A stretch of 64,000 bases of DNA from an uncultured virus (IMG/VR IMGVR_UViG_3300010347_003641) (IMGVR_UViG_3300010347_003641), one strand, 5' to 3'; shown: positions 5,144 to 52,615, numbered from the stretch's first letter. Notes: generated by a model not told the origin, from the letters alone. A program made the numbers and translations.

Positions 5144-5164
5144 TTGCGAAGGGAGTTGGATCGG

Positions 5165-13976: not shown

Positions 13977-14414
13977 ATGTACGATGAAATCTTCGACCTT
14001 ATGGTCATAGATGGAGATATAGTGATAGGAACTGCCGATGTGATGTTATGCAACGGCAGCGAAGCGTTGAAAAACATAGTCAACAACGTCGTGTTCTCGA
14101 GAGTAGGCTCGTACCGGCTCAACCCTATATTCGGCTCAAACATCTTCGCGAGGATAAGCGGCTTTAGAAGCTGGTCCGATCAGTCCGGCTTTGCAGAAGC
14201 CTTTTCGACCGATCTCAAAAACGCATTGAAGGTTCTCGACCCCGTCCTGGCCAACGCCATAAATGTGAAGCCGGGTGAAATGTCGCCGGAGGGAAAGATC
14301 TCTTCGAGCCTCGTAATAGACAATTCGAACGAACTGCCCTTCGAATTGAGCATGATTGATTCTGAGCTGAAGTTCGGATCATTTTCGGAGGTAAGCGATG
14401 AGAACGTACAGTGA
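13977..14414 (+). CDS. Baseplate wedge / sheath initiator (gp25/XkdS-like)
   Basis: DGDIV...GSEALKN...SRVGSYRLNPIFGSNI pattern; immediately upstream of baseplate J. Confidence 0.7.
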   Translation: MYDEIFDLMVIDGDIVIGTADVMLCNGSEALKNIVNNVVFSRVGSYRLNPIFGSNIFARISGFRSWSDQSGFAEAFSTDLKNALKVLDPVLANAINVKPGEMSPEGKISSSLVIDNSNELPFELSMIDSELKFGSFSEVSDENVQ

Positions 14415-31900: not shown

Positions 31901-34900
31901 ACGTTGTCGTGTTCGATCCGAACGCTGGAACCTTCTCGGCTTCCGCCATCAACTTAAAATGTTTCAAAGTTGTCGGGAACGCCGCGCCTGTCGCGCAGAG
32001 CGCCTCTTTCTATTACACAGACGCAACCGGAACTGCGGCCAGCGTTGCCGGCTCGAACGTCAACGTTACGTGGGGAAGCGCGGCCGGCAACATAAACAAC
32101 ACTACAACATTTACCGCAAAGGTCGGAGGAATCGAAGTCGATGCCGTTACGGTGAGTAGAATCGCCTCCGGTACGAACACGTATTCGGCGGTCCTGTCAA
32201 ACGAGGCGGTCATCGTAGCGACCGACAAGGACGGACTCAATCCTAATCCGTCTAGCGCCGAGACGATAATCACCGTTTACAAAGGGACTTCTCCGCTCAC
32301 ACTCACAGCGCTGTCAGCCTCCGGAACCGGCTGCACCGCGACTGCCAACCTCTCGTTGTCGAAGGTAACTATAAGCAGTTTCACGGCCGATTCTGGATAC
32401 GCGCAGATAACTATTACGGCCGACGGAAAGACATTTACGAAATACTTCAGATTCGCAAAATCCAGACAGGGTGCAACAGGAATAAGTGGAACTAACGCTA
32501 AGTACCCGGCCGTCGAAATAACCGGCGACATAAACAGCGTGTACAACGGTTCCACGTATTCGCCGGTCTCCGTAACTCTAGCGCCGAAGATCTTCGAGGG
32601 CGTCAACACGCTGAGCGGTGTGTCCTTCGATTGGTCTTACGTTAACGGCTCGTACACGGTCGTGTCCGGCTCAGACGCCACCACGCCGCTAACTATAAAC
32701 TTTTCGGATATCAAGAGGCCGCAGCCGGAGACAGTAACCACCGTCAAGTTAGTTATAAAGCACGGTACCCTCTCGTTCGTGTACAATGTGAACCTGACGG
32801 TTAAAGACACAAGATACGACTGGCTCAGGACATGGACGAACTCGACGCTCATAGGAACAGACAAGATAGCCACTCCGGACCTTTTCGCAGGCACCAACAG
32901 CGCAGGTTCGCTCACTGGCGTGCGCATAAATATCGAAGGCGTCAAGGGTCTGAAGAACAACGTTGCCACGTTCAACCTCGACACAGCCGGAAACCTGACA
33001 GTCGGAAACGATACCAACTACATGAAATTCACTTCCGCCGATGGAAAGGTGAAGATACGCGCAACCGAGTTCCTTCTTGCAACAGGGACCAACATTCTCG
33101 ACGCCGCTTCTGCCGACGCTCAGACGAGAGCAAGCACAGCCCAATCGAACGCGATATCTACCGCGGCGGCCGATGCCACCACGAAAGCAAGCGCGGCCCA
33201 AAACAACGCGATATCCACGGCCGCAGCCGACGCAACGACGAAAGCGAACGCCGCAGAGGACAACGCGAACGCTTACACGTCCGCCGAAATAGCTCTGGTA
33301 AACAACACGATCACGTTGAAGACTTCTGCGAGCAACCTGGTGTCTGAAATAAACCTAGCACCTGCCGGCGTAACCATATCCGGCGACAAGATAAACATAG
33401 TCGGCCTGCTCAACGCAATAAACAGCGACGGCTCTGTCACGACGATAAGCGGAAACAAGATAACGACCGGAACCATAACCGCCGCGCACATGAACGTGTC
33501 CAGTTTAAGCTCTATGACAGTCAATGCGGGTACGATAACTGCAGGGCTTCTGAAAGACGCCGCGTCGATCACCCAATTCGACGTAACCAACGGATTGATC
33601 AGGCTCGGAACGATGACGGCCGGAAAGGACGTAGGCGGCACCGGAATTCACGGAATAAACATAGATTCCAACAACTACTGGTACCAGAACGCGAAGTTCA
33701 GAGTGGGGAACTCCACCGATTACCTCTACTTCGACGGCACCAGCCTGAAGATATACGCGAGCGAATTCAAGGGTACGTTCAAGACGACGGCAAATGTAGA
33801 TGTCGGCGCAACGCTCACTGACCACGGAACGAGAATAACCGCGACTGAAAACGAAGTGTCGCTGAACGTCGTCAAGAAGGGCTCCATTATAGCCAGCGTG
33901 AACGCGTCCTCAGAAGGCGTTGCGATATCAGCGAACAAGATAAACATAAGCGGCGTAGTAACCGCGATAAACGGCGGCACGACCACCATCGATGGCAGCA
34001 AGATAACTACCGGCACTGTAACGGCCAAGCAGTTGCAGGTAGGAAGTAACGGCAACCTCGTGCCAGATCCTCTCTTTGAGAACTTCAGCGATTACTGGTC
34101 CGGAAGCAGTTGCGAAGTGATAGACGACACGACTTTCCCGGGCGCTTCTGGCTCGAGACCGGTCCGCGTATTGAAGATAACTACGGCTGCCGAAGCGTCG
34201 GCCACTCTCAAATACAAAGTGCCTGTAAATCCGAAGTCTATCTACAAATTCACGCTCTGGTTCTGGAGCGACAACGCGACAATCGGAACTAGATACTTCG
34301 GAACGTACGGATACGACAGGTCCGGCGCAAACACCGGAGTGCTTAACGAGAACGGAACTGTAAACACGAATCCGTACTTCTGGAACGGCGACATTCCGGC
34401 CAACACGTGGGTAGAAAAAGTCGGCTATCTACTTCCGGAATCGCTCAGAGGGAAGGGCTTGTTCAGCGGTAGTCCGAAGTTCTACATGCCATCGGAAATG
34501 CAATACGCCACTATGCGTTTCCTGAATTACTACAACGGCGGAACGGCCGTCGAGAACAGGTTCGCCATGCCGGTTATCGAAGAGATCTCTACGACGATAG
34601 ATGGCTATACGATAACAACCGGAAAGATCCAGAACGCAGCCGGCTCTTCCTACTTCAACTTGAACGACGGCACGTTCGTCCTCGGTACCGACAAGCTCGT
34701 CTGGAACGGAACAACGTTGTCGGTCAAAGGGAGCGGCGAGTTCTCAGGCACAATAACAGCTACCGGCGGCTCGATTACGGGCAACATGAACGTGACCTCC
34801 ACCTTGACTGCAAACAACGCCAAGTTTGGAAAGAACGTAACTAGTGGAAACCACGGTCTGCTGCTGAACGCAAATAACTACTGGTATGACAGCGGCACGT

Positions 34901-37900
34901 TCAGGGCCGGAGACGCAAACCAGTACATTTCCTTCTCGTCCGGAACGCTCTCGATAAAGGCAGCCTCGTTCCTTCTCAGTTCAGGCACCAGCGTGCTTGA
35001 TGCCGCCGCTGCCGATGCAACCACGAAAGCCAATGCGGCACAGAGCGATGCAATAAGCACGGCCTCTGCCGACGCCACTGCGAAGGCAAACGCCGCACAG
35101 TCGAGCGCCGAAGATTATACGGACGCGCAGATAACGACGGTAAACAATTCGATCAACCTGAAGGTATCTAAGAACGACGTAATAAACCAGATCAACATAT
35201 CCACAGAGACTATCAAGCTGCAGGGAAATAAGATAGAACTCGAAGGTGTAAACGGAATAGACATCACCGGAGTCGTGCGCCTCATAAACGGAAACGCGAA
35301 CGGCACGACGATTGACGGCGGGAAGATAACTGCCAGCTCGATAAACTCTTCGCAGATTGCCGCCGAAGCTATAACTGCCACGCATCTCGCTGCCAGCTCT
35401 GTAACTTCAGACAGCATAGTCGCCGGCGCCATAACTACCACGAAGATAGCGGCTGGCTCTGTAACGGCGACAGAACTCGCCGCCAACTCCGTAACTGCCA
35501 ACGCGATAGCCGCCAATGAAATAACGTCTGCCAAGATAGCGGCCGGCGCGATAGAAGCTACACACATAAGCGCCGGAGCGGTAACTGCCAACGCCATATC
35601 TGCAGCAACTATAACTGGCGACAAGATAGCCGGAACCACGATAACAGGAAGCAATCTGGTCGCCGGGACCATCACTGGCAACGAAATAGCCGCAGGCACG
35701 ATCACAGCGTCGAACATAGCGGCCTCAACGATAACCGGTTCGCAAATCGTTGCCGGTACCATAGACACGGCGCACATAAAAGCGTCGGCAATAACATCGT
35801 CTCTCATATCTTCAAGCGCCATAACTGCCGACAAGATAAGCGCCAGCGCCGTAACGACAAGCAAGATAGCCTCCAGCGCGATCACCACCGACCAGTTGGC
35901 CGCCGGTGCTGTTACTGCAGCAAAGATACTAGCAGGCACCATAGAGGGCAGCAACATAAAGGCTGGAACAATATCAAGCGGAAACATAGCAGCAGGAGCT
36001 ATAACCGCCACTCTTCTCGCAACCGACGCCGTTACCGCCGCAAAGATACAGGCCGGTGCGGTCGGAGCCGACGAAATAGCCGCCAATGCCGTTACAGCAG
36101 CAAAGATCGCTGCCAGTGCGATAACAGCGACTCATATAGCAACCGGTGCCATAGAAAGCGGCCATATAAAAGCCGGCGCGATAGAGACCGGACACATAGA
36201 GGCCGGCGCCATAACCACCGCCCTCCTCGCAGCAAACGCAGTTACAGCAACGAACATTCAGGCCGGAGCTGTAACCGTCGATAAACTGGCCGCCAACGCA
36301 GTTACAGCAGACAAGATTGCAGCGAATGCGGTTACGGCCAGCGAGATAGCCACCGGTGCAGTAACGGCCGCGAAAATTTCCGTCTCCGAATTGTCAGCCA
36401 TAGCTTCGGACATAGGAACCGTAACGGCCGGTATCATAAGGAGTTCTGACAGCTCGACCTATTTCGACCTCGACTCAAAGACGTTTGCGCTCGGCACCAA
36501 GCTCACGTACAACCCAACCTCCGGCCTCGTGATAGACGGAAAGTTGACAACAGGCGACGGGAGCATTGCCGGTTGGACGATAGGGTCGAGCTCTCTGTCG
36601 AAAGACAGTTTGACTATTAACTCTTCGACGCCATACATAGGACTAGGCGCAATCGTTTACGGCGGAGCTGGCATTTGGCTCGGAAAGAACACGACATCAT
36701 GGAAAATGAGCCTGTACAACGACGCCAACAATTACTTCCGCTGGGACGGCTCTAAGGTGGAGCTGAAGACCGCCTTCTTCGGGATAGACGCGGCTGGCGG
36801 AATGAACGCGACTTCAGGCAACATAGCCGGCTGGACCATAGGCGAGAACAACCTATCGTCGGCAAATCTAAAGTTCTCTTCGAACCCGACTTCCGAATAC
36901 GTTGCGCTGTGCGCCGAGGATTTCGGATACAACGGCGTGTGGTTCGGCACGTCAGATTACTTCTCATTTGTCCCGAAGATGACGTCGAACACTACACCTT
37001 ATTGCACGATAAGCAGCAACAATTCGTCTGTCGATGCGTTCAAGGCCTTCGACGGCTCGCTGTATTCGTATGTCGAAATAACGCACAACAGCGCAGAGAC
37101 GTGGCTGAAGGCGGATCTCGGCAGCGGAAACAGCGAAACGCTCAGAAGGTATAGAATATACTGCCCGTCGGAAACGCCATATACGTTCGGAGACCCGGAA
37201 AGCGACACGATGTTCAGCCCGAAGGCATGGGCTGTCTATGGTAGTGCCGACGGAACCAACTGGACGCTCCTCGATTCGAGAAGCGTAACCTACCCATGGG
37301 GCGGCTGGTCTGCGTATTACACGATATCCTCGCCAAGCGCATTCAGATATCACAGGATAAGTTTCACTTCTTATTCGAACGCGACTAGCATAAGAGTGTC
37401 CTCGATAGAATTCCAGACCACGTGGGGCGGCAAGATACACAAGCCGCTGACCAGTAACTCTGCGCCGGCTCCTTTCGCGGTCGTTAGCAGCCCTTCGACG
37501 ACTACCGCTTACAGGATATTCGACGGTAGCAGCTCGACGTACTGGAACAGGTCTTCACCGAGCGGCGAGACGTGGATACGCCTGTTCACTTCTTACCTCA
37601 TGAAGGGTATAGACAGGTACAGGATAGTCGCGCACGGGACCAATGCGACGTATTCTCCGCGTTCGTGGAAGCTGCAGGGAAGCAACGACATAGTAACCTG
37701 GGTTGATCTGCACACGGTCTCCGGACGCGCCGGCTGGACAGGCCCGTCGGAATTCTTCTACACCGACTGCAAAGCCGCGTTCCCGTATTACAGAATCCTC
37801 ATCAGCGAGTACAACAGCTCTTCGTACGTTTACATATACGAGCTTGAATTGTACGAGGTTAAGAACCACAAGTTCAGCCTTATAGGAAGAGACAAGTTCA

Positions 37901-38541
37901 AGAACCAGGACAACTACCTCGTGTGGGACGACGGACTCCAGTTGAAAGGAAACGTCTTCGTCGGGGCCGGCGAGAACGCAATAACTTTCGAAGATTCGAA
38001 GATAGATCTGGTTGACGGCACTTCCTCCGCGTCTAACGGCTGGACTACGTTCAGGCAGAAGCCGAAAGACACCGACATAGTAAGCCTCGGGTACATGAAC
38101 GAACAGACGAAAATATCGAGCCTGTTCATAGTAGAGTCGGAGTTCAAATCCGGAGCACAGACACTCGGAAGCGCATACTTGCAGACCGAAGCCGTTTCCT
38201 TCGACGGAACGAACCAGGATTACGTAACTCTGCGGTTTGGCTCGGAAGGCGTCGAGAAGACCATAACTTACACCAAAGGGTTTTTCGACTTCCACGGAGA
38301 CGGATTCACATTCGACTCGTACGTAAAATCGCCTATTCCCACGTGGGTCGGCACGGCGACTTCCGCGACTTTCAAATACCCGAACTCGTCTAGTTGGACC
38401 AATGCCGAGAATTGCCCATTCTCGAACATATGGTTCTGGTACAAATCTAGCGGTACTCCAAACAGAGTTATGTACATACGCAATTCTTACAACGGCGCCA
38501 GCACAGTGTATTGGGTGGCCTTGACAGAAAAGGTACTTTAA
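19936..38541 (+). CDS. Giant modular tail fibre / receptor-binding protein (6201 aa)
   Basis: HxH motifs at the N-terminus, GPQ collagen triplets, antireceptor/PblB-like repeats, repeated beta-sandwich pairs, carbohydrate-binding-like inserts, Gp58-like shaft modules, a decamer repeat tract, and two F5/8 discoidin-like domains near the C-terminus. Confidence 0.9.
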   Translation: MASIFDVAGEEILLYNALNTKVLTFKNANGDLVIRSGATPEIAKTLLVITKDGIVLDGNDVAFKDYVDSVVGAIQIGTVKQSVASHTSLQTLTDNVNGDMRFAEDTAKLYRYDSSATGGDIQCNEGGYWVAMFSAPQQHNTLQGIQGGSSANSEYFHLSQNERSNLLTHIVSTNNPHSVTLEQLGAASSSHEHKFGVKVGTANKDFTIGKNLSTPYVTFVPQGSATVELDSQGNVLIGFTQTETIYTAGSGITISPDKVIAIKYASSGSYLGTGEAVARHDHEHTGSQIHGAVASAVNADTVDNKHASEFALSSHSHYNYFQKGDDSASKITLGSGGTLKLYFNDFTSTFDNTGKSITLTLDGTKVVKSVNGKKGDVTLAFSDITGTLPTHTHSGGDITSKVASSSYADNAGLVNNFSVGQNLLTTSDVNFKTVATTGNVTAGGSVAGVNITASGTLSGSTVNANTSSSLASATASQLTASGDIKTTSGSLVFGKSKLLSARNRLEIMSSSDDTKIAVGYLGGIDGRALDSTDFGIWFGAGNAIVIDNGTASQFNGDWIVQHDANVSLVDSGGNEVIRLGTTASELGLFLKNSAGTVLSKFTSGGAYFGNNVCILADGSGQLTDGITWTQAGELTVNAAKVIGTLSAAKVKAEDVLTGILAAGNANVRLNLGQNNIAVEKYSTSWAPVARFGEYDSNKYGLWAIEGNIGGWSVNSSSLSNGNISLDSALDKIAVGTKINLFGNATSTIGSIAVDVSGNVTIGNTAVFNANNTATISGWKLLTDRFESTSGKTKLYANGKLALTDGTNEKIRMFIDASKGPTLELVGAMKFDSDGLVFNGGTIKWATLDDASKSNISSYSVIFSSTNGFAVLKNSDTGVYTPSSVTITATVYRDYDGTAASVASHDWKDTSTNQTVSSSSSLTINPSSISMGANKTYAYTAILSNGRTVASALVLSYSATGTSGLPGADAIHAYVEPAAIAITKFSNGTLSSTNASATARLFKGTTEVSGAATISWSKIGDVSFSQSGQTLNLTYDWDGVDSKVGVYRATILYNPGSGQQTYYASVPVSVADHGVAGDPAVTATIEPQGVIVRKDRFGSFDGNKTLTARLFVGGTEVTPDSIQWKKNGSNISGASASTYTVVASDSCAAVYSCAMSYGGHYYTTSTIVNLVVDGPQGPQGIQGVQGAAGTSSYFHVRYSVNSDGNPMQTTPAKYIGTAVTNSMTAPATPSEYSWVQLEGSQGPQGEQGIAGTDGANGQTSYLHIKYSDNGSSFTAGNGETPGTWIGQYVDFNPADSATFGDYTWTKIEGPQGPAGENAVVYWIEAERNTVVYNPNTGIYTGNPITLKCMKRVGNGTAVEQSAYWKVAGAWHSATPSTSISISPTSTTSIAAALAYNASDSECIDFLTINVVSEGSDSYSIILSNEHQTVSANSDGSSPSPSSVSTSVLLYRGSMQISDFWIGASSGTVNQTTKTVTLSIPTSSTSSGSSTITVKTSETGTTIGTKSFTWSKSLRGIEGQQGPQGQSTVVGILSNVSHTVPTDPNGNSGNFSGCETTMSVFVGTADDSANWSYSKTQSAGVTCTLVGRTVTVSAMTSDTGYVDITASKNGYPSITNRFTITKSKQGVTGATGQAGQNATAYWLVSSTAAISKNRDGVYTPSNITVNGKSATGTSAPTSYSGRFKIYETSDGTNWVSTYTSSANEASKTYTPTAGIKAVKVSLYLAGGTTTLLDEETIPIVEDGPVGPQGVQGVQGIAGTSSYFHVKYSANANGNPMSDTPNTYIGTAVTNSHTPPDVYSDYTWSRFEGAQGLKGDQGIPGTNGENGQTSYLHIKYSDDGSSFTAGNGETPGKWIGQYVDFNPADSLTFSDYSWAKIEGPTGQTGATGPQGSPALTSFLTNDSHIVPTDANGNNGVYTGCSTTMNVLVGTTDDSANWSYSISSSTGVSASLSGRTVTVTNMTSDSGYVDITATKSGYPSLVCRFAISKSKQGTAGANATSYWLVSSAGAIKKALDGTLTPSSISVSAKSATGTSAPVSYSGRFIIAEYNGSAWTDKYTSASNEATKAYTPTASATAIRVRLYLAGGATNMLDEETIPVINDGPQGPIGQTGAQGQSGQSAIISFLSNSSHLVPTDRDGNNGAFDGCETTMSVFIGTTDDSENWAYVATPSSGVTASISGRTATVTGMSVDTGYVDITASKAGYQSLISRFNIAKAKQGVQGAAGQNATSYWLISDANAIKKALDGTFSPSSIALSSKSKTGTSSPVAYSGRFIIAEYDGSTWTDKYTSSANESSKTYATSATAKIVRARLYLAGGTTNLIDEQLIPIVEDGPAGPQGPTGQTGAQGPQGSPALMAVLSNDSHIVPTDQNGNNGVYTGCSTTMSVFVGTSDDSINWTFTRTNSAGVTSSIAGNVVTVSAMSVDTGYVDITASKTGYPSLTCRFTVTKSKQGITGATGSAGTNGIDATAYWLVTDVSAIKRTIAGAYVPSTLTVSAKSATGAGSPAAYAGRFIIAETSNGSTWTNKYTSSSNESSKSYTPSAGIKAVRVRLYLAGGTANLLDEEIVPVVDDGPQGPTGPQGIQGPTGPSGTSSYFHVRYSPNADGSQMQTTPSTYIGTVVTNNPSAPSDYTQYSWVRLEGVQGPQGEQGIAGTNGLNGQTSYLHIKYSDNGTSFTANGGETPGKWIGQYVDFSPADSTTFSNYTWTKIEGPQGPTGQTGAQGPQGTPALTALLTNDSHIVPTDKDGNYGNYTGCATSAKVFSGATEDTANWTFSKVDSTGVTSAISSNTVTVSNMTVDAGYVDITAARSGYPSLTCRFTISKSKQGITGQAGQDATSYWLVSDAPAVKKNLAGSYMPASINVSAKSQTGTSTPAAYAGRFIIAETTDGTTWTNKYTSSANEASKAYTPSASIKSIRVRLYLAGGTTTLLDEEVIPIVEDGPVGPQGPQGQQGIQGPQGPVGSSGLNFSEAKMLFTDPTFQSGENGMSVYNNSANGLVTLARVSRVSDSPYTDSGHNIKIANTGTASPGLGGFYHPINSRANAVFVQRIVAKIPVGYSIEQATNPIGTDATNTWITSKAGTGRFEEYILVRRCGSTGTFSSSGHIYIAGSPLGTPESPVEWIIAYATVYDFTAIGFANITAVLSNESHTVPTDSAGNNGNFANAATTMTIFNGASDDSSNWTVTANASNVTGSLSGKTYTVAGMSADSGYVDLTASRSGYPSVTKRFTLTKSKQGITGSTGAAATAYWLTRSAAAIKEALDGSFTPVSITFTLKSKTGTSDPIDYAGRFIIARSTDGSTFTNVYTSSTNQSSYAYAIPAGTKSLRVRGYLAGGTTTLLDEEIIPVVKDGPVGPQGPQGAQGIQGVQGIAGTSSYFHVRYSANANGNPMTTTPDTYIGTAVTNSPTAPSDYSEYVWSQFEGSQGPQGLQGIQGPKGDNGLTSYLHIKYSDNGTSFTANNGETPGKWIGQYVDFSPTDSTTFSNYTWTKIEGPQGPQGIQGVQGIAGTSSYFHVRYSANSNGNPMTTTPNTYIGTAVTQSPTSPDSYTEYTWSRFEGLQGPQGIQGIAGTNGANGLTSYLHIKYSDNGTSFTANNGETPGKWIGQYVDFNSVDSTTFNDYAWTKIEGPQGVQGPQGIQGPQGEAGYNAYTVSIKTDNGQLFKASEYGTVVGHNTITLSLDLVNINPVSYQWKKKVGGSETIVGTSNQLVVNFADVLTSAVYSCTVTGTANGQSVSVSDATTLSRVYDGSGAYSVVLSNDHHAIPTDSEGNYGVYSGAETTVRLFRGITEVATGEFSISKNLTSSSDVTSSFNNTTKKVSVSSMTVDNGWVDIDVTVGGSVVCTKRFSLSKSKQGAPGISATNTTLLNWSGNVAWATSTTMANASTWTFDNVPADVTNVEIWVKATDPEGTTHVALNGTDLGIMDINDYHLPDNSTAWFKFFASNVLPGSNQNTISIWSTTSDGGTILEIKVYPTGLRGEQGQTGAAAIAYFATATPDVVVFDPNAGTFSASAINLKCFKVVGNAAPVAQSASFYYTDATGTAASVAGSNVNVTWGSAAGNINNTTTFTAKVGGIEVDAVTVSRIASGTNTYSAVLSNEAVIVATDKDGLNPNPSSAETIITVYKGTSPLTLTALSASGTGCTATANLSLSKVTISSFTADSGYAQITITADGKTFTKYFRFAKSRQGATGISGTNAKYPAVEITGDINSVYNGSTYSPVSVTLAPKIFEGVNTLSGVSFDWSYVNGSYTVVSGSDATTPLTINFSDIKRPQPETVTTVKLVIKHGTLSFVYNVNLTVKDTRYDWLRTWTNSTLIGTDKIATPDLFAGTNSAGSLTGVRINIEGVKGLKNNVATFNLDTAGNLTVGNDTNYMKFTSADGKVKIRATEFLLATGTNILDAASADAQTRASTAQSNAISTAAADATTKASAAQNNAISTAAADATTKANAAEDNANAYTSAEIALVNNTITLKTSASNLVSEINLAPAGVTISGDKINIVGLLNAINSDGSVTTISGNKITTGTITAAHMNVSSLSSMTVNAGTITAGLLKDAASITQFDVTNGLIRLGTMTAGKDVGGTGIHGINIDSNNYWYQNAKFRVGNSTDYLYFDGTSLKIYASEFKGTFKTTANVDVGATLTDHGTRITATENEVSLNVVKKGSIIASVNASSEGVAISANKINISGVVTAINGGTTTIDGSKITTGTVTAKQLQVGSNGNLVPDPLFENFSDYWSGSSCEVIDDTTFPGASGSRPVRVLKITTAAEASATLKYKVPVNPKSIYKFTLWFWSDNATIGTRYFGTYGYDRSGANTGVLNENGTVNTNPYFWNGDIPANTWVEKVGYLLPESLRGKGLFSGSPKFYMPSEMQYATMRFLNYYNGGTAVENRFAMPVIEEISTTIDGYTITTGKIQNAAGSSYFNLNDGTFVLGTDKLVWNGTTLSVKGSGEFSGTITATGGSITGNMNVTSTLTANNAKFGKNVTSGNHGLLLNANNYWYDSGTFRAGDANQYISFSSGTLSIKAASFLLSSGTSVLDAAAADATTKANAAQSDAISTASADATAKANAAQSSAEDYTDAQITTVNNSINLKVSKNDVINQINISTETIKLQGNKIELEGVNGIDITGVVRLINGNANGTTIDGGKITASSINSSQIAAEAITATHLAASSVTSDSIVAGAITTTKIAAGSVTATELAANSVTANAIAANEITSAKIAAGAIEATHISAGAVTANAISAATITGDKIAGTTITGSNLVAGTITGNEIAAGTITASNIAASTITGSQIVAGTIDTAHIKASAITSSLISSSAITADKISASAVTTSKIASSAITTDQLAAGAVTAAKILAGTIEGSNIKAGTISSGNIAAGAITATLLATDAVTAAKIQAGAVGADEIAANAVTAAKIAASAITATHIATGAIESGHIKAGAIETGHIEAGAITTALLAANAVTATNIQAGAVTVDKLAANAVTADKIAANAVTASEIATGAVTAAKISVSELSAIASDIGTVTAGIIRSSDSSTYFDLDSKTFALGTKLTYNPTSGLVIDGKLTTGDGSIAGWTIGSSSLSKDSLTINSSTPYIGLGAIVYGGAGIWLGKNTTSWKMSLYNDANNYFRWDGSKVELKTAFFGIDAAGGMNATSGNIAGWTIGENNLSSANLKFSSNPTSEYVALCAEDFGYNGVWFGTSDYFSFVPKMTSNTTPYCTISSNNSSVDAFKAFDGSLYSYVEITHNSAETWLKADLGSGNSETLRRYRIYCPSETPYTFGDPESDTMFSPKAWAVYGSADGTNWTLLDSRSVTYPWGGWSAYYTISSPSAFRYHRISFTSYSNATSIRVSSIEFQTTWGGKIHKPLTSNSAPAPFAVVSSPSTTTAYRIFDGSSSTYWNRSSPSGETWIRLFTSYLMKGIDRYRIVAHGTNATYSPRSWKLQGSNDIVTWVDLHTVSGRAGWTGPSEFFYTDCKAAFPYYRILISEYNSSSYVYIYELELYEVKNHKFSLIGRDKFKNQDNYLVWDDGLQLKGNVFVGAGENAITFEDSKIDLVDGTSSASNGWTTFRQKPKDTDIVSLGYMNEQTKISSLFIVESEFKSGAQTLGSAYLQTEAVSFDGTNQDYVTLRFGSEGVEKTITYTKGFFDFHGDGFTFDSYVKSPIPTWVGTATSATFKYPNSSSWTNAENCPFSNIWFWYKSSGTPNRVMYIRNSYNGASTVYWVALTEKVL
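23449..30840 (+). repeat. Intragenic modular repeats: 5 collagen-flanked units and 6 beta-sandwich pairs
   Basis: YFHV[RK]YS...YLHIKYSD...W[IT]GQYVDF units at about 23449-23880, 25153-25600, 27631-28095, 29959-30385 and 30385-30840. L[ST]NxSH.VPTD / YWL...DEExIP pairs start near 24510, 25610, 26285, 26980, 28100 and 29335. Confidence 0.9.
35329..36378 (+). repeat. 35 uninterrupted 10-aa (30-bp) repeats, consensus AAGA[IV]TAxK[IL]
   Basis: Counted from TASSINSSQI to ATGAVTAAKI: 1050 nt with no register shift. Confidence 0.9.
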
Positions 38542-38553
38542 TCGGAGGGGAAT

Positions 38554-38811
38554 ATGCAAGAGAGAAGTGAAATCGAAAGATTGGAAAAGACTCTTATATC
38601 AACGATGCAGGCGATAGGGTCCGCGAAGAATGCACTCGACAGTTTGTCGGCCCTCGCAGCACCGCAGCTCGAAGCTATACTAAGCGAAATATCCAGCAAG
38701 TTCGTGTATTACGAGGCAGAAATCGACAGGCTCCGCAGAGAGAATGAAGAACTCAGGGGGGCAGGCGCCGGCAATTTAAGCGAATTGCCCCGGGCTAATA
38801 TGGGTTCATAA
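38554..38811 (+). CDS. Small coiled-coil protein, possible fibre assembly factor
   Basis: GGAGG RBS; heptad pattern EAEIDRLRRENEEL; follows the fibre gene. Confidence 0.55.
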   Translation: MQERSEIERLEKTLISTMQAIGSAKNALDSLSALAAPQLEAILSEISSKFVYYEAEIDRLRRENEELRGAGAGNLSELPRANMGS

Positions 38812-38835
38812 GGCAAATGTGGAGGTGAAAGGAAA

Positions 38836-39300
38836 ATGGAAACATACAATAAGACAGAAGCCGAAGTATTACCGGAAGTCGTCGAGACCAATACCGAAAA
38901 AATCCAGCTTAGCCCCGAATACGTTCAGTCGATCACAGGAAGGATCTCCAACATTTTCAGGAAACTCGAACACATAGCGTCTGTCGTCAAACAGGCTTCG
39001 CAGAATTCAGAGAATCCGACGGCGTACGCTATAGTAGGCGGCTTTATCGGCGATCTAGTTACACGCGCAACTTCTGCGCAGTACAAGATCGACACGATCG
39101 CTCAGGACGTCAAAGATGCTTACAACGAGGCTATCGACGAAATCAATACAGTTTTCAGCGATATCTCTCTGAAAGAACAGGGTACGCTAACCAAGCTTCT
39201 TGCGCCTGTTACCGGGCTAGTAGCCTCGCTCGAAAGTCCGGCCGAGTTCGAACTGAAAAAAAAAGAAGTTCAGCAAGCGCCGAAAAGTGAAGAGAAGTAA
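38836..39300 (+). CDS. Helical hypothetical protein
   Basis: GGAGGTG RBS; 154 aa. Confidence 0.6.
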   Translation: METYNKTEAEVLPEVVETNTEKIQLSPEYVQSITGRISNIFRKLEHIASVVKQASQNSENPTAYAIVGGFIGDLVTRATSAQYKIDTIAQDVKDAYNEAIDEINTVFSDISLKEQGTLTKLLAPVTGLVASLESPAEFELKKKEVQQAPKSEEK

Positions 39301-39309
39301 GTGATCCGC

Positions 39310-39609
39310 ATGTCCAACTCCTGCGACAAATACAGAAAAGCGGCGGTAGTTTTCGAAACTGCCGCCACTGCTTTATACCGAATGGCGACGGATAACCCGT
39401 TGCGAACAAAAGTCGAATTCGACGCGCTTGTGTACGCATCGTCAGTGTTGGAAAACGTTTCGGCCGAAATCAACGCAACGGAATTTAACCTGGTTGACGT
39501 AACGGAATATATCTTGAACATGCTCGTGGGTTTTGAAATGCCAAGCTACATAGAGTCGATGGTGGATAACGTGCTACGAGGAGTTTCGAGAGCTATAAGC
39601 AGCCTTTGA
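39310..39609 (+). CDS. Helical hypothetical protein
   Basis: ORF track starts at GTG 39301; ATG 39310 is the likelier start. Confidence 0.5.
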   Translation: MSNSCDKYRKAAVVFETAATALYRMATDNPLRTKVEFDALVYASSVLENVSAEINATEFNLVDVTEYILNMLVGFEMPSYIESMVDNVLRGVSRAISSL

Positions 39610-39630
39610 TATAACCATCTGCACCGTCAA

Positions 39631-39642
39631 GTTATTTCTTTC
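39631..39642 (+). promoter_or_regulatory. Putative late-promoter motif, copy 3 (GTTATTTCTTTC)
   Basis: Preceded by CAA; begins 26 nt before ATG 39657. Confidence 0.6.
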
Positions 39643-39656
39643 AGTGGTGAGGTCAA

Positions 39657-40766
39657 ATGCCAGAAATTACGTTTCCGACGCCAAATGAATTCGATAACTT
39701 GGCGGCATTGGCGAAGGATCTGTGGAAGTACCAGGACAATGGCTCGAAATACGAAATAGGACAGCGGTGGGATCATTTCGCGTGGAGCTTGAACGCCACG
39801 TGGTCCGACGGCTCGAAGATCTACTCGGAGTGGAAGTCCAAAGTGATAGACCTCAACGAGCTTCCGCTTCTAATAACCGCCGTGTGGAATGCGACCATGT
39901 GTCCTGGCGGGAAGATAGACACTGACGATCTTGAAGTCGAGAAGATAAAGATAATAACAGCTGAAACTTGCGGCGGCGCGGTGTCGGCAAAGAAGGCCGT
40001 CAACGACGAAGCCGTTCAGCTCAACTGCTACGAGAATTTTGTCGCCGGGGACAACGCGACGGAGATATTCCTCTCAAACACTCAGACAACAGATCAGGCG
40101 AAGAGGTTTGTGCAGGTCTATATAAGAATGTCATCGACCACAACCAATCAGTCGCCTGTGATGAACGAATTTTCGCTCGAAGTGGTTTACGACCAGACGC
40201 CGCCGAGCATTTACGGATTCGACAACTCGGTGAGGACCACACTCGCCCCTCTTATAACATTCAATGTCCGCGACATTCAATCTGGAGTAAGGAACGATTC
40301 GATCGAAGTCCGCTATTCGACCAACGGCGGCTCCACGTATTCGCAATGGTCCGCTCCGTCCATCCTACCTGACAGTCCTTCCTGGACCACCGCCGAATTG
40401 TTATGTTCGTTCACTCCTACTCTCGTAGAATCTTACACGCAAAACGTTTTTCAGGTTAAGGCGACCGACAAATATGGAAACAGCGATACCGAACAGTTCG
40501 TCGTCAGAGTGGACATAAGCGGTCCTACAATAAATGCCGCTGTATATACCGGGTCGGACAAATCCGTTCCGGTTTCCAACGGCGCGATAGTGAATGACAA
40601 CACTTTGTACGTAGAAGCGCTCGCTTCGGATCTCTCTCAAATAAGCGGCTTCTCGTGGTTTTTAATCGAACCTGGCACGACTAGCGAAGAACCTGACGAC
40701 ACGCTCGATTCGTCCGGAAACACTCTGATAATAGACGAATCGACCTCAATTCCGAATAATACGTAG
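39657..40766 (+). CDS. Ig-like repeat virion protein A (ends in an incomplete Ig repeat)
   Basis: One complete repeat DQTPP...DIQSGV...VKATDKYGN...VDISGP, then a half repeat before the stop codon. Confidence 0.7.
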   Translation: MPEITFPTPNEFDNLAALAKDLWKYQDNGSKYEIGQRWDHFAWSLNATWSDGSKIYSEWKSKVIDLNELPLLITAVWNATMCPGGKIDTDDLEVEKIKIITAETCGGAVSAKKAVNDEAVQLNCYENFVAGDNATEIFLSNTQTTDQAKRFVQVYIRMSSTTTNQSPVMNEFSLEVVYDQTPPSIYGFDNSVRTTLAPLITFNVRDIQSGVRNDSIEVRYSTNGGSTYSQWSAPSILPDSPSWTTAELLCSFTPTLVESYTQNVFQVKATDKYGNSDTEQFVVRVDISGPTINAAVYTGSDKSVPVSNGAIVNDNTLYVEALASDLSQISGFSWFLIEPGTTSEEPDDTLDSSGNTLIIDESTSIPNNT

Positions 40767-40788
40767 TTTACGTGAAGGGAAGATCAAG

Positions 40789-42453
40789 ATGCCAAGACTA
40801 AAAGATGGTACTAACGTATTCAAGATGAAAGCGAAAGACCAGTTCGACCACTGGTCGTCTGTAACATCGTTAACCATGCTGGTCGATACAACTCCTCCCG
40901 GCTCGAACGTCGCCGGAAGCGTAGGTAGCCACAATACGGCGAACTGGCAGACTCCGAAGGTATCACCCGATGGCTCCACATGGAAGGACGCAATAGCGAA
41001 GATAGGTTCGCTCCCAGCCGTTCCGACGATCTGGATAAAAGAGAAGAGAAATCCATCTGTTAGAATCCAGACAAAAGATTCAAACAATGAAGTCGGTGCC
41101 TCGGCGGCCGATTGCTCGGGGCTGTCTGCAGTATCAGGCGATTACGCGTACCAGATAAGCTCCGACGGAGGCAACACGTGGGGTTCGTGGCTCACTACCG
41201 GCATAACGACAGAAGCCACCGATGCGTTGAAGAACACGTTTGCAAACATCTCCGCAACAGCTCCGAACTTCTCCAACGATTCAACCAACACACACGACAA
41301 GTGCAGGATAAGGTTCAAGCAAAAGGACAAGGCCGGTAACGAAGGCACATCCGATGAATACGCCGTTTTCATCGACACAACCGCTCCTGTTTACAGTGGA
41401 ACGATAAGCTCGTCGTGGAGACTTACTCAGGCCGCCAGCACTTCAGCCGTTACCCTTCAGGACGTCACCAGCGGCATCGACATAACCGGCATTCCTCCGA
41501 AGTACCAGATATCGACAGACGGAGGGAACACTTTCGGCTCTGGAATAAACCTCACCAACACCGATGGAGCATCGCATGGAGATACGACCAGCAAGACGTT
41601 TACCGCTACCAACCCATTCAACGTCGGCTCGAAGAACGCGCAGAATTTAGGCGTTTGTCAGAACGAGATAAAATTCACGGCTCAGGACGTTGCCGGAAAC
41701 ACAGTCACTTACGGAGATTTCGTCGTCAACTGCGACTACTCTTCGCCTACGATAGGAACTCAAGCACCAACACAGAGTACGTGGCAGCTCACGAGAACTT
41801 TCGAATCCTACGTCCAGTTCAGCGACAACGATTCTGGAATCGACATGTCAACCGCTTACTTCTGTGTGTCTATAGACGGCGGTACCTCTTTCCACCCCGT
41901 GAAGGCAGACGGAACCGTCGATACTACGAAGACTGCGGCCGCTTCTCCTACGTCGAACTGGTCGAAGGCTTTTTGCGCCAACAGCGCTACCGGTGAAACC
42001 GCAGCCGCCGATTTAGCAGGCAACTGCGGGCCGAATACTGCGTACCTTTTCACCTCAAGTGATACAGGCGCTACCAAGGGTACGGTAAACTTCGGCGTTG
42101 ACACTACTTCCACTTCGGGAGTACAGATCAAATTCTCCGTGAAAGACAAGGCAGGGAACAGTTACACCACGAAAGTCGTTCAGGTCGGAATTGATACCAC
42201 GGCTCCTGTCATAAACTCACTCAACGCTTACGAAGATAGCGGCAAGGCTACACAAATAGCAAACGGCTCCATAACGAACGATCCAGATCCGTTCTACGAA
42301 TGGAACGTCAGCGATAACTCGCAAGTCGCCGGATATTCATTCGTGATAGTGGGTCCAGACGAGGTGGACTACACTCCGGACGACACAGTGGACAAGGCCA
42401 GCGGTCAGACAACGTTCAACGTCGCGACGGAAACGGAGCCTACCAATTCATGA
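40789..42453 (+). CDS. Ig-like repeat virion protein B (begins and ends with half Ig repeats)
   Basis: Repeats bounded by DTTPP, DTTAP, DYSSP and DTTAP, with KDKAGN/QDVAGN and SxDGGxT loops. Confidence 0.75.
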   Translation: MPRLKDGTNVFKMKAKDQFDHWSSVTSLTMLVDTTPPGSNVAGSVGSHNTANWQTPKVSPDGSTWKDAIAKIGSLPAVPTIWIKEKRNPSVRIQTKDSNNEVGASAADCSGLSAVSGDYAYQISSDGGNTWGSWLTTGITTEATDALKNTFANISATAPNFSNDSTNTHDKCRIRFKQKDKAGNEGTSDEYAVFIDTTAPVYSGTISSSWRLTQAASTSAVTLQDVTSGIDITGIPPKYQISTDGGNTFGSGINLTNTDGASHGDTTSKTFTATNPFNVGSKNAQNLGVCQNEIKFTAQDVAGNTVTYGDFVVNCDYSSPTIGTQAPTQSTWQLTRTFESYVQFSDNDSGIDMSTAYFCVSIDGGTSFHPVKADGTVDTTKTAAASPTSNWSKAFCANSATGETAAADLAGNCGPNTAYLFTSSDTGATKGTVNFGVDTTSTSGVQIKFSVKDKAGNSYTTKVVQVGIDTTAPVINSLNAYEDSGKATQIANGSITNDPDPFYEWNVSDNSQVAGYSFVIVGPDEVDYTPDDTVDKASGQTTFNVATETEPTNS

Positions 42454-42737
42454 TAGAAGTAACACGCATCACAAGCTCTGATTTCGGTACTTCTTACGTT
42501 ACCGATAGATACAATTGTTCCGGTTATATCGAAGGTGGCACTGTCCTTGTCCTTGACAGGGACAATGCCGCTATTCGATTGAAAGACGACGTAGTCCTCG
42601 TCGTTGACCACAAATGCGCCCATTCTATAGGAGATAGACGGTGCGAATGCGACATTCTGCTAGACAGGAGAGGCGATATTGCAAACCATTTGGAGAAAAG
42701 TATTTCAGCCTTCGTTTCTGAATTTCGACGGCGTTGA
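42450..42737 (+). CDS. Small hypothetical protein
   Basis: ATGA-coupled to the upstream gene; overlaps the next gene by 59 nt. Confidence 0.45.
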   Translation: MIEVTRITSSDFGTSYVTDRYNCSGYIEGGTVLVLDRDNAAIRLKDDVVLVVDHKCAHSIGDRRCECDILLDRRGDIANHLEKSISAFVSEFRRR

Positions 42738-44046
42738 CGATTTCGCTACGATAAACATAGACAGCCTTCCCGAGAGATGGACGATAGAATTCCTCGGGCG
42801 TTTCGACGTTCTCAACGGAATGTTTTTCAGGAAGGGGAACGTTATCTCGCTGTCGGTGATAGAAGATCCTGTCATCCAGGTCGGATACATCGTAGGACGC
42901 GTCCAATATGCAGATCCTACGGAGATGAACCATTACGCGATAACTTACGAGGACGAAGTAGTGTCGCTGTTTGTAAACGCAGAAAAGCGTTTCGAAAGCG
43001 TGTGTTCTTTCTCGCAGGAAGAGGTCGCGGCGCTCGAAGGGCCGGACACGTTCTTCTTCTTCGACGACATGCTGTTCAAATATCCTGGTGCCATGGGTTT
43101 TTTCAGGGTGTGGAACACCGTTCTGAACGAGGAGATCCTCTCCGATTACATGCACATGAACATAACCGAACACGAGAACCTCATGATTTCCGTCAGCGCC
43201 TTGCGGGACGGCGAATTCAAAAACCATTTTTCCGACACGTTCAACATGAACGGGTGCTGGATAGAACAAGTCGATTACGAGCTGAGAACCAAGCACTTAG
43301 TGCCTGACTTCATCGTGTTGAATGACCTGTCGCAGCTCAACGACTACCTCATATTCGATTGGCAATATCCCGAAGGTACTCCAAAGAAGTTCAAGGAGGG
43401 CTACAACAGTTTCAAGATAAAGGCCAGAGACTTCGCCGGAAACTGGTCGGAAACAGCAGTACACACAATGCTCGTCGATACGGTCCCGGCGTTATCCAGC
43501 CTCGTCGGATTCACTCCGGAGGGCGAACTCATAACGTTCTCGTTGCAAAGCGAGGAATCTACGTTAGAGAACGAACGCTCTACCTCGAACGACGTCTCCG
43601 GCTTGAGTCGAGTAGATTTCTTCACGAAATACTTCGGGCAGCCTGAGACTCTCGCTAACTCTCTCGATATCGAAGGCCTGGAATCGCTGAGCGAATTCAC
43701 TACCGTGTGCAAGGACCTAGAAGAGATACGCTTCGTCACTTTCGACATCGCTGGAAATATTAGTACCGTGAAGTACACTGTTTCATATTACGGCGACTCT
43801 ATACCTGTGATAGAGATAGTTTACAGGTCGTATGAAGAGGGGATACAGGTCCAGCTTTCCTACGACATGGTTTTGAACAACGTGGACACGATAGTAGTAC
43901 ACATCGACGACTGCGAGGAACCTACGCTTGAAGTGTCAGACGTGATTGAAGAGAATTTAAGTGTGGAAGACAGAGTTGAAATAATAGGAGAAGTCGCAGA
44001 TTCCTTCGAAATGGAGTTGCGGATTTTCTTGAAGAAGGAGAGTTAG
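42679..44046 (+). CDS. LamG/ConA-like domain plus Ig-like virion protein D
   Basis: TTG start after AGGAG. LNFDGVDDF...NHYAITYE...LFVN...FRVWNTVL (LamG-like), then KIKARDFAGNWS...VDTVP and DVSGL...DIAGN. Confidence 0.7.
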   Translation: MQTIWRKVFQPSFLNFDGVDDFATINIDSLPERWTIEFLGRFDVLNGMFFRKGNVISLSVIEDPVIQVGYIVGRVQYADPTEMNHYAITYEDEVVSLFVNAEKRFESVCSFSQEEVAALEGPDTFFFFDDMLFKYPGAMGFFRVWNTVLNEEILSDYMHMNITEHENLMISVSALRDGEFKNHFSDTFNMNGCWIEQVDYELRTKHLVPDFIVLNDLSQLNDYLIFDWQYPEGTPKKFKEGYNSFKIKARDFAGNWSETAVHTMLVDTVPALSSLVGFTPEGELITFSLQSEESTLENERSTSNDVSGLSRVDFFTKYFGQPETLANSLDIEGLESLSEFTTVCKDLEEIRFVTFDIAGNISTVKYTVSYYGDSIPVIEIVYRSYEEGIQVQLSYDMVLNNVDTIVVHIDDCEEPTLEVSDVIEENLSVEDRVEIIGEVADSFEMELRIFLKKES

Positions 44047-44048
44047 AT

Positions 44049-44345
44049 ATGTTCACACAGGACACACCGCCGTTCCGTTTTCTGTGCAAGGGCAAGCACG
44101 GTCCGATGGACCTGACTGGCGCAACGGTTACGCTACATGTCACTACGCCGGACAGATCGAAGTATTCGAAGCTCTGCGTTATCGAGCCGGAAAATCCCGG
44201 ATACGTGCATACGAGAATGTACATAGGCGATATCGAAAAACCTGGCACTTACGTCGGGCAACTGGAGATAACCTTCCCCGACGACAGGCACTTCTCGTCA
44301 GACGTCTTCGTGTTCACAGTGAAGGAGCGGATCTATGACAGTTAA
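44049..44345 (+). CDS. BppU N-terminal-like adaptor domain protein
   Basis: DTPP...PMDLTGATVTL...G.V...DIEKPGTYVGQLEITFPD pattern. Confidence 0.7.
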   Translation: MFTQDTPPFRFLCKGKHGPMDLTGATVTLHVTTPDRSKYSKLCVIEPENPGYVHTRMYIGDIEKPGTYVGQLEITFPDDRHFSSDVFVFTVKERIYDS

Positions 44346-44739
44346 GGCTTACCACGATAACGCGTTGACGCTCCCAATAAACGGAGACAATCCAGTTGTC
44401 ATCTATATAGACAGGTCAATAACCGACCTCGTTAGATATCCGGTGTACTTCAAGAACCTTTCGAGCAGTTATGTCGCCACCATAACCTCTGTCGCGATAT
44501 CCGTTCCGACGTTCACGTTCAACATATCCAACGACAATTTCAGAACCGGCGAGAGTTTCACAGTCGATTCGGCGCCGCTGTGCAACTTCGAGCACGGGCA
44601 GTTCACTCTCTATCCCCAGGATAAATATATGAACTACCTTCTCGTCAGGGTGCCTCAACCGCCAGTAGGCTTCTGGATAGCACCTACGCGGTTCTCTTTC
44701 ACCTTGAACTACCAATACAGTATATGGACCACTTTCTAA
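44335..44739 (+). CDS. Beta-rich hypothetical structural protein
   Basis: AAGGAG RBS; overlapping start; N-terminus AYHDNALTLPI resembles the AYEDSGKATQI segment of protein B. Confidence 0.5.
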   Translation: MTVKAYHDNALTLPINGDNPVVIYIDRSITDLVRYPVYFKNLSSSYVATITSVAISVPTFTFNISNDNFRTGESFTVDSAPLCNFEHGQFTLYPQDKYMNYLLVRVPQPPVGFWIAPTRFSFTLNYQYSIWTTF

Positions 44740-44749
44740 GGAGTGTAAT

Positions 44750-44941
44750 ATGGCGAAGAAAGCGAAAGTTATTCAGTACACGATGACGGAGACGGTCAAG
44801 GCGACCGGTCTGTCCTCCGACGAAATATGGGAATACATAAACGAAGGCCTCGTGCAACCGTTTTACGACGAAAAGAAAGGCTATATGTATTTCAACGAAG
44901 CGCAAATAGAGATCATGAAAAGGTTCGCTGGTGTTAAATGA
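44750..44941 (+). CDS. MerR/Xis-type winged HTH DNA-binding protein
   Basis: YTMTETVKATGLSSDEIWEYINEGLVQP...GYMYFNEAQI; AAGGAG RBS. Confidence 0.75.
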   Translation: MAKKAKVIQYTMTETVKATGLSSDEIWEYINEGLVQPFYDEKKGYMYFNEAQIEIMKRFAGVK

Positions 44942-45219
44942 GGTCAACAAGGGAGCCGATAAATCTCGAAGAAGTGGTCTCGCGCGTGTCTGCACGCACG
45001 GGTCTGTCTGAAGCGATCACCGCCGAAGTGATAGGCGAATTCGTTGGAGTAATCGCCGACAGTGCAATTGAATTCAGACCTATAAAGGCCAGGGGGCTTT
45101 TCGCCACAAACCCTTCGATTTACAAATCTCACTTCGGACCTGTATTAAAGGTCAACTTTGCACTCGGTAGCAACTTCAAGGACAAGATAAAGCAATTAAG
45201 CCCGATTCTAAGGAGATAA
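44938..45219 (+). CDS. HU/IHF-like DNA-binding protein with shortened beta-arm
   Basis: INLEEVVSRVSARTGLSEAITAEVIGEFVGVIADS...IKARGLF...VNFALGSNFKDKI. Confidence 0.7.
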   Translation: MRSTREPINLEEVVSRVSARTGLSEAITAEVIGEFVGVIADSAIEFRPIKARGLFATNPSIYKSHFGPVLKVNFALGSNFKDKIKQLSPILRR

Positions 45220-51481: not shown

Positions 51482-52615
51482 ATGGACAAAGCCGCGATAG
51501 ACACAAATGTACTTCTCGACTTCCCAGAAATCCTTACCCACGTAGATAAGAACGTAATCAGTTACATCGTATTGTACGAACTCGACGGATTGAAGAAAGA
51601 CCCTTCGAAAGGTATGAGAGCGAGAAAAGCCCAAAGGGCGATACAGGAAGCCCAGCAAAACGGAAAACTCATTATCGACTTCGACGACTACGGTTGCGAC
51701 ACTCCAGATCAAATAATAATTTGTTCTGCCGAAGAAAACAAATGCCCGCTCATCACCTCCGACAGAATGATGCAGATCTTCGCTACGGAATTGAACATCG
51801 ACGTTATTGATGCGAAAAAGCGGGAACGTGAAGGCAAGTTCCTCGTCAAGAGCGACAATATATTCGAAGATTCTATAAGTGTCGAGCCGGAAATCACGGA
51901 GTGCGAATACGGGTATGTCGAGGACTCAAGCGGGAAGCGCCGGCTCGGGTATCATTCGGACGGTACGATAACTTTCATAAACGAGCCGAAGATAAGAATA
52001 CCCGGCGGCACAGAAGTTATTCCTTCTAACGACGGACAGAAATGTCTTATCGACGCTCTCAAAAGAGACGAGATCAGAGCGATATTCGCCACCGGTTGCG
52101 CAGGTAGCGGAAAGACCTACATAACACTCGCGTGGGCCATATCGAGAATAAAGGCCGGCGCCTTCGACAGAATCGTGTGGGTCGTGCCGCCTGTTCGTGT
52201 AGGCGGAAAGGATAGAGACGGTTATGTTCCTGGTTCCATCGAAGAAAAAACCGCGATATACTGCGGCGGTCTCAAGGACAACATAACCAAACTCTGTCAA
52301 GACGCTGGCGAGTTCGCCGAGGCCTGCTTGGAGATCCAGTCGCTCAGTACAATTCGAGGAAGGACGATATCCAATTCCATTTTCGTAGTTGACGAAGCGC
52401 AGAACATAACAGTTCACGAGATGAAAACGCTCCTCTCGAGAGTTGAGGATAATTCCAAAGCGATCATAATCGGCGATATAAACCAGTCGGATATCCGCGA
52501 GGCTACAGGTTTGAAGGCGGCTATCGACAAGTTCTATGGGAACGGATTTTCTGCCGTCGTCAATCTTGAGGCTTCGCAGAGGGGGAAAATCGCCGAAGCG
52601 GCCGATAAGTTGTGA
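51482..52615 (+). CDS. phoH: PIN domain-PhoH family ATPase fusion
   Basis: PIN motifs IDTNVLL, YELD, PDQII and LITSD; PhoH motifs GCAGSGKT, RGRT, VVDEAQN and GDINQSD. Confidence 0.9.
   Translation: MDKAAIDTNVLLDFPEILTHVDKNVISYIVLYELDGLKKDPSKGMRARKAQRAIQEAQQNGKLIIDFDDYGCDTPDQIIICSAEENKCPLITSDRMMQIFATELNIDVIDAKKREREGKFLVKSDNIFEDSISVEPEITECEYGYVEDSSGKRRLGYHSDGTITFINEPKIRIPGGTEVIPSNDGQKCLIDALKRDEIRAIFATGCAGSGKTYITLAWAISRIKAGAFDRIVWVVPPVRVGGKDRDGYVPGSIEEKTAIYCGGLKDNITKLCQDAGEFAEACLEIQSLSTIRGRTISNSIFVVDEAQNITVHEMKTLLSRVEDNSKAIIIGDINQSDIREATGLKAAIDKFYGNGFSAVVNLEASQRGKIAEAADKL

Follow-up and report, generated by a model that had tools for sequence, protein, structure and literature searches.

Three consecutive genes, here called A, B and D, occupy positions 39657 to 44046 of a 64,000-nucleotide (nt) stretch of DNA from an uncultured virus (IMG/VR IMGVR_UViG_3300010347_003641; the whole stretch is referred to below as the window). 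At each of the two gene borders, a Big_13/FN3-like beta-sandwich of the immunoglobulin (Ig)-like type is encoded in two pieces. Strands A to E, which end the upstream protein, would form a socket, and the F-G hairpin carried by the next protein would form the plug. The split domain is best read as a plug-and-socket connector of three structural proteins, and we give a probability of roughly 0.55 to a non-covalent A-B-D chain held together by completion of the split domains in trans. A, B and D would then be separate structural proteins in the baseplate or fibre module of a large tailed phage, in which B would insert its plug into A's socket and D its plug into B's socket, completing both domains. 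Such a chain would resemble beads on a string, with about eight Ig-like domains; the N-terminal domain of A would sit at the virion end as the proposed anchor, the Ig rod of B would lie mid-chain, and the LamG and C-terminal domains of D would lie at the far end as the likely binding parts. We infer the association of the pieces in trans and their position on the virion, and the matching of each plug to its socket is taken only from gene order.

The proteins and their parts are listed below. Identities refer to a diverged relative found on a Logan contig of 33,511 bases, which was compared through its proteins and not its DNA.

39657-40766, plus strand: protein A, 369 amino acids (aa), frame 0, ending ...IPNNT before the stop
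39657-40196, plus strand: N-terminal domain of A (aa 1-180), without a family in Pfam or PHROGs; 151/180 identical in the relative
40197-40508, plus strand: intact Ig-like repeat of A (aa 181-284), TPPS...DIQSGV...YSTNGGSTYSQW...VKATDKYGN...VRVD; 82/104 identical
40509-40766, plus strand: acceptor part-domain of A (aa 285-369), strands A to E, then a TAG stop; 67/85 identical
40767-40788, plus strand: A/B spacer, 22 nt, with the Shine-Dalgarno-like sequence AAGGGAAG
40789-42453, plus strand: protein B, 554 aa, frame +1, starting MPRLKDGTNVFKMKAKD... and ending ...EPTNS before the stop
40789-40896, plus strand: donor hairpin of B (aa 1-36), strands F and G; 35/36 identical
40897-42186, plus strand: string of intact Ig-like domains of B (aa 37-466), with an AlphaFold2 (AF2) predicted local distance difference test score (pLDDT) of up to 88
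42187-42453, plus strand: acceptor part-domain of B (aa 467-554), then a TGA stop; 75/88 identical
42454-42678, no strand assigned: B/D gap, 225 nt, with the Shine-Dalgarno sequence AGGAGAGG ahead of the TTG of D
42679-44046, plus strand: protein D, 455 aa, TTG start
42679-43377, plus strand: LamG-like jelly-roll of D (LamG approximately aa 1-205) and a short linker; 190/233 identical
43378-43488, plus strand: internal donor hairpin of D (aa 234-270); 32/37 identical
43489-44046, plus strand: further Ig-like repeat and C-terminal domain of D (aa 271-455); 137/185 identical

Homology between the pieces was evident on both sides of the split. The C-terminal 89 aa of A and 90 aa of B shared 29 of 76 aligned residues (38% identity; E value, 4e-14), and residues 1 to 42 of B shared 18 of 39 with residues 237 to 275 of D (46% identity; E value, 5e-10). 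Among the window's 606 stop-to-stop open reading frames (ORFs) with a length of 50 aa or more, significant matches to the half and hairpin subtypes were found in A, B and D only. To place the pieces within a whole domain, a profile of 106 positions was used that derives from 11 intact repeats in four unrelated proteins (P0016, P0036, P0046 and P0050). The B half aligned with profile positions 2 to 64 (E value, 1.1e-14), the corresponding half of the relative with positions 2 to 68 (E value, 1e-13) and the A half with positions 19 to 64 (E value, 7e-4), while the hairpins of B and D aligned with positions 71 to 106 (E value, 1.2e-10) and 74 to 105 (E value, 1e-9), respectively. Halves (2 to 68) and hairpins (71 to 106) could thereby be tiled onto one domain with zero overlap, and no complete seven-strand sandwich was formed by these pieces within a single chain, the halves stopping at approximately 64 to 70 and the hairpins starting at 71. 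In both junctions the cut falls at one and the same profile position, between strand E and the 'L-x-D/E-G' turn from which strands F and G follow; the piece that the ends of A and B lack is the two-strand F-G hairpin of an FN3/Big_13-like sandwich and not one strand. The original prediction, made from the sequence of the window, had claimed that A and B end in homologous half repeats with the same stop point and that the missing hairpin occurs as an orphan at the N terminus of B and after the LamG domain of D. The alignments and the profile placement bore out both claims, and the roles it had assigned, acceptor only for A, donor plus acceptor for B and LamG plus donor for D, agree with the domain maps.

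The same domain occurs unsplit elsewhere. An exhaustive HMMER search with B returned 55 proteins at E values up to 0.001, and in several of these homologues, such as P0016, P0036, P0045 and P0046, the domain is whole. Pfam Big_13 (PF19077; gathering score, 27 bits) was above its cut-off in four of the five homologues scanned, with 54 bits for P0016 and 85 bits for P0036; P0046, with 22 bits, was below it. The direct Big_13 matches of B and D also fall under this score, with 18.6 bits for residues 169 to 197 of B (profile positions 74 to 102) and 13.8 bits for the D hairpin (residues 234 to 268; profile positions 68 to 102 of 102). One intact homologue matched the FnIII domain of chitinase A1 (1k85; E value, 7e-4), and a PDB sequence search identified no match for B or P0046 at E values up to 1. 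These comparisons indicate that the split pieces are homologous to Big_13-member domains.

The 4.4-kb stretch from 39657 to 44046 was present as nearly identical DNA in 20 sequencing runs from 11 studies, dated 2016 to 2025. The original prediction had pointed to the A/B junction as a place where the reads should be inspected, and contigs and assemblies span it without gaps: contigs from runs X1, X15 and X20 (three studies) cross both junctions and show neither differences nor gaps, the L001 assembly is identical to the stretch at 4501 of 4501 positions, and the L002 assembly carries one mismatch and 0 gaps over 4165 bases. L001 and L002 are copies of the same phage and were the sole matches in a scan of JGI/ENA metagenomes; run X24 covers 5 of 30 bins only and is uninformative on the junctions. 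The sequence of the A/B spacer was unchanged in the contigs of the three runs and in L001 and L002.

In the diverged relative, A' (369 aa; 81% identity), B' (554 aa; 89%) and D' (455 aa; 79%) have the same lengths as their counterparts and no indels, their first and last residues are those of A, B and D, and the ends IPNNT and EPTNS are kept. The split point is thus conserved in a homologous locus, a comparison that the original prediction had also proposed. The hairpins were the best-conserved segments, with 97% identity in B and 86.5% in D compared with 89% and 79% over the full-length proteins, and the halves change no faster than the adjacent intact domains. A fragment, P0029, which is 51% identical over the matched part, opens with M and five further residues and then enters the hairpin. 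With only 38 to 46% identity between the two junctions, which are paralogues on either side of the cut, the split must be older than their duplication and has been kept since. On this sequence evidence the split is real, duplicated and conserved. Tandem duplication across one ancestral junction would have left, in the middle, a gene that begins with a plug and finishes with a socket, and B has this arrangement.

A and B are separated by 22 nt and lie in different frames, while B and D are separated by 225 nt and share a frame in which eight stop codons lie between them. The B frame is open from 40735, after stops at 40726 to 40734. B has its own ATG and D its own TTG, and a Shine-Dalgarno-like sequence was found at the usual distance before each, as for most genes in the window. 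B and D are, to judge from these signals, translated separately, each with its own ribosome-binding site.

The pair submitted to complex prediction was the 89-aa A half and the 42-aa B hairpin, both supplied with a small alignment; three controls were run alongside. The interaction prediction score from aligned errors (ipSAE) was 0.54, 0.43 and 0.54 for the A half with the B hairpin and 0.00 in each of the three controls. The partners had a pLDDT of 66 to 70, at least 80% of contacts agreed between runs, and the A half had a pLDDT of 65 to 71 with the B hairpin versus 42 to 46 with unrelated partners. In calibration, 116 of 157 solved complexes passed the mark set for ipSAE, as did 2 of 215 mismatches, and values of 0.60 or below were seen for only 18 of those 157 solved complexes and for both of the passing mismatches; these counts are approximate here because custom alignments were used. 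An AlphaFold-type check of the C terminus of A with the N terminus of B had been suggested by the original prediction, and its outcome lends weak support to binding of the predicted pair. Assembly in trans is suggested by the logic of the sequences together with this one weakly supportive prediction.

The monomer models inform on the remainder of the putative chain. The AF2 model of B (25 aligned sequences) had a mean pLDDT of 63, and its C-terminal half had a pLDDT of 35 to 54. Structural matches to the B model covered residues from approximately 31 to 473, ending near 470 and excluding plug and socket, and included tandem Ig/FN3 rods such as SiiE (2yn3_C; Z score, 9.6) and titin (2rjm; Z score, 9.4); residues 196 to 315 matched PorU (6za2_A; Z score, 9.8). 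The AF2 model of D, built on a two-row alignment, had a pLDDT of 27.6 and was unusable. Pfam Laminin_G_3 scored 17 bits in D, under its cut-off of 27.6, and an ESM Atlas model of D aligned with LamG clusters over residues 1 to 205 or 1 to 234 with a template modelling score of 0.39 to 0.51 by query. Approximately 28 residues lie between the LamG fold and the hairpin of D, too few to provide a socket of D's own.

The part-domains could also be the remains of a long ancestral Ig-repeat gene that was broken by a nonsense mutation or an insertion. They would then never reassemble, and would exist as disordered tails or pack within their own chain. We consider this a tentative alternative, to be taken seriously yet clearly less probable than the A-B-D chain, and several points speak for it or otherwise weigh against trans-completion. 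No unsplit orthologue was found in the protein searches, either word-indexed (spanning 0.55 to 1.75 times the query length) or exhaustive with HMMER (no length limit and one representative per 50% cluster; the best non-fragment matches were cellular surface proteins with 32 to 37% identity). There is one divergent relative, seen through its proteins only; of three IMG/VR scans for relatives, two were empty and the third gave only L003, a phage that is not related and whose LamG proteins are ordinary, no match came from tblastn with 50,697 phage records as the target, and a scan of GTDB genomes identified no relatives. The B hairpin already reaches a pLDDT of 71 to 85 in the AF2 monomer, where it has no partner, while the B half stays low, and the low pLDDT of the halves may reflect only thin alignments. 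As intact homologues were present in the alignments and solved FN3 structures are abundant, the ipSAE pass, itself graded as weak support, may reflect memory of the fold and not binding. The hairpin of D is internal and could pack on its own LamG domain or on the Ig domain that follows. Set against these points, the hairpins are the segments under the strongest conservation, halves evolve no faster than their intact neighbors, and indels are absent at 80 to 89% identity. An identical cut has been kept in two junctions that have diverged to 38 to 46% identity, and a part-sandwich of five strands, if left exposed, would as a rule be unstable and disappear.

If the plug of B also fitted the socket of B, the split Big_13 junction would be a reusable connector, and self-inserting B subunits could polymerize head to tail between a base (A) and a cap (D), giving A-Bn-D with a variable length set by donor-hairpin polymerization. 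Both donor and acceptor are present on B, and a cross-fit is conceivable since the sockets (38%) and plugs (46%) are related. This pilus-like arrangement is speculative and in our judgment unlikely: the AF2 monomer leaves the B half at low confidence with no sign of its own hairpin closing it, the way in which the two pairs of plug and socket have diverged points more readily to specificity within each pair, phage particles are usually of fixed stoichiometry, and chaperone and usher families were not seen in a Pfam scan limited to 24 of the larger proteins of the window. Recoding, by a +1 shift at or before the stop of A or by bypass of the spacer, would yield an A-B fusion with an intact domain. 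Ahead of its ATG, the B frame stays open over 54 nt and so extends into the end of A, and the fusion would insert only approximately nine linker residues. Inspection by eye of CCG AAT AAT ACG TAG T (A frame) identified no known slippery or re-pairing site, and an Rfam search over 38500 to 45000 gave no match at E values up to 1 and no recognizable intron or recoding element. B has its own Shine-Dalgarno sequence and ATG, the relative keeps both protein ends, and IPNNT in A is homologous to EPTNS in B up to the stop, which argues that the A frame is used to its end. Nor could the B/D border be explained in this way, since eight in-frame stops and a 230-residue LamG domain intervene, and we regard recoding as very improbable. 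A sequencing or assembly artefact that created false stops is more improbable still, to the point of being negligible; no point in its favor was found, the junctions are identical in contigs from three studies and in two public assemblies, and the diverged relative has the same protein ends. The single-base error or +1 frameshift fusing A and B that the original prediction had allowed for is unlikely.

Among known systems, chaperone-usher pili, in which an incomplete Ig fold is completed by a strand from the neighboring subunit, offer a close parallel to the proposed A-B-D chain. In these pili, and in type V pili, TasA and archaeal Tafi/threads, an incomplete Ig-like subunit is likewise completed by strands of the next subunit. 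The donor is N-terminal, as in B, and the tip adhesin is lectin-like, as the LamG domain of D would be. A pilin, however, lacks only the C-terminal G strand, whereas strands F and G (36 residues) are missing here, and a short N-terminal extension donates in pili, whereas the donor in D is internal. The virus has three proteins, each encoded once, with the cut at gene borders inside what is a single domain in homologues, and no chaperone or usher was seen among the 24 proteins scanned; assembly would be cytoplasmic, with no secretion step. The locus does not belong to the chaperone-usher family. Of the chaperone-usher-like logic that had been predicted, the split Ig fold is borne out, with two strands missing instead of one.

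In the branched fibres of G7C, CBA120 and similar phages, the products of consecutive fibre genes attach through dedicated N-terminal modules. Those adaptors are whole folded attachment domains and not halves of one domain. Pieces of an engineered fibronectin type III domain reportedly reassemble non-covalently, as the title of Dutta et al. 2005 (Protein Sci 14:2838) on fragment complementation has it; this is a likeness, though the system is artificial.

Genes in pieces are known from phages, and in the published account (PMC2988022) the polypeptides of Aeh1 split NrdA, T4 gp39/gp60 and phage 25 gp43A/43B reassemble from a split coding unit. As here, a contiguous coding unit is divided into two polypeptides. 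The proteins in those cases are enzymes of T4-like phages; either a homing-endonuclease gene or an untranslated insert interrupts the coding unit, and relatives have unsplit orthologues. The domain described here is a structural repeat whose split has been duplicated, and its 22-nt A/B spacer contains no mobile element. An intervening mobile element was likewise not found at the B/D border, where the 225-nt gap holds only doubtful ORFs of 72 to 95 aa and no Rfam match at E values up to 1. Beta-strands are also exchanged between the subunits of contractile sheaths, both in phages and in phage-type injection systems (PMC13266070). These too are phage-derived appendages bound by inter-subunit strand donation, but the sheath arms add to a sheet that links copies of a single protein within a helical lattice and do not complete a split Ig domain shared by the products of adjacent genes. 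The statement in the original prediction that such logic was not known for a phage appendage was therefore too broad. No description of an Ig/FN3-type domain split across adjacent fibre genes, or of donor-strand complementation in a phage fibre, was found in the open-access literature searched.

All genes in the window lie on the plus strand, and the region resembles the tail/baseplate module of a large tailed phage. The Pfam scan of window proteins identified a Baseplate_J protein at 14398-15552, and a BppU_N-like protein (44049-44345) lies just downstream of D; PHROGs assigned 0 families across 11 proteins scanned. DNA repeats in 39600-44100 were limited to short, chance-like matches, and a scan for promoters and terminators gave counts under the shuffled expectation and was uninformative. 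Two further candidate ORFs lie around the B/D gap.

42450-42737, plus strand: ORF 'C', within the B/D gap region, overlapping the stop of B via ATGA
42408-42623, minus strand: possible 72-aa ORF

The codon score of ORF 'C' is approximately 0 bits per codon and the spacing of its Shine-Dalgarno sequence is poor; it is probably not a gene. The minus-strand ORF scored 0.21 bits per codon, like small genes nearby.

A number of other observations were made on the surrounding genes. A fibre-like ORF of 6201 aa (19936-38541, plus strand) adjoins the locus upstream; it contains many collagen-like G-x-y stretches and several modules of approximately 300 residues repeated at high similarity, and is presumably a giant fibre. 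Further downstream in the window are a phage tail repeat protein and LamG proteins. The large protein at 61307-64000 (plus strand) has two strong Laminin_G_3 stretches (E value, 1e-39). A weaker Pfam match that overlaps them bears the name of the receptor-binding domain, lectin-like and N-terminal, of clostridial neurotoxins, and we read it as the common jelly-roll fold only. Within the structural module, a 2729-aa protein (5144-13333, plus strand) carries a staphylococcal-nuclease domain at residues 269 to 383 (E value, 1e-9), and a PIN-PhoH fusion protein (51482-52615, plus strand) with matches to PhoH (E value, 3e-38) and PIN_4 (E value, 2e-10) lies amid structural genes. The labeled runs in which the 4.4-kb stretch was found are activated sludge, wastewater, bioreactor or digester metagenomes, and the phage appears to be widespread in such treatment plants.

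For the N-terminal domain of A (aa 1-180), the nearest ESM Atlas clusters were unnamed Uroviricota proteins of 138 to 179 aa (score, 0.90 to 0.91). As a lead only, other phages may encode this domain as a protein in its own right. The internal repeats of B (residues 37 to 466) are of the Y-x-x-S-x-D-G-G-x-T/S-W type, and their closest matches were giant proteins with 32 to 37% identity, among them one of 6837 aa. Those inspected (1289 to 2680 aa) carry a hydrophobic segment at the N terminus and a membrane anchor at the C terminus, and the sequence matches point to a domain family common to cell surfaces and this phage.

Should the pieces join in trans, a natural Ig/FN3-type domain would serve as a two-part connector between the products of neighboring phage genes, and a compact natural plug-and-socket pair would be available for protein engineering. 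An annotation rule would also follow: an Ig repeat that stops after strand E beside a gene that starts with an F-G hairpin would denote a complex and not a pseudogene. If the speculative A-Bn-D polymer were true, it would be a cytoplasmic, chaperone-free counterpart of pilus assembly, and duplication of the junction would be a route to new links or tips. For the A-B-D chain itself, a connector of this kind would explain how long modular adhesion chains could be built from separately encoded, exchangeable parts.

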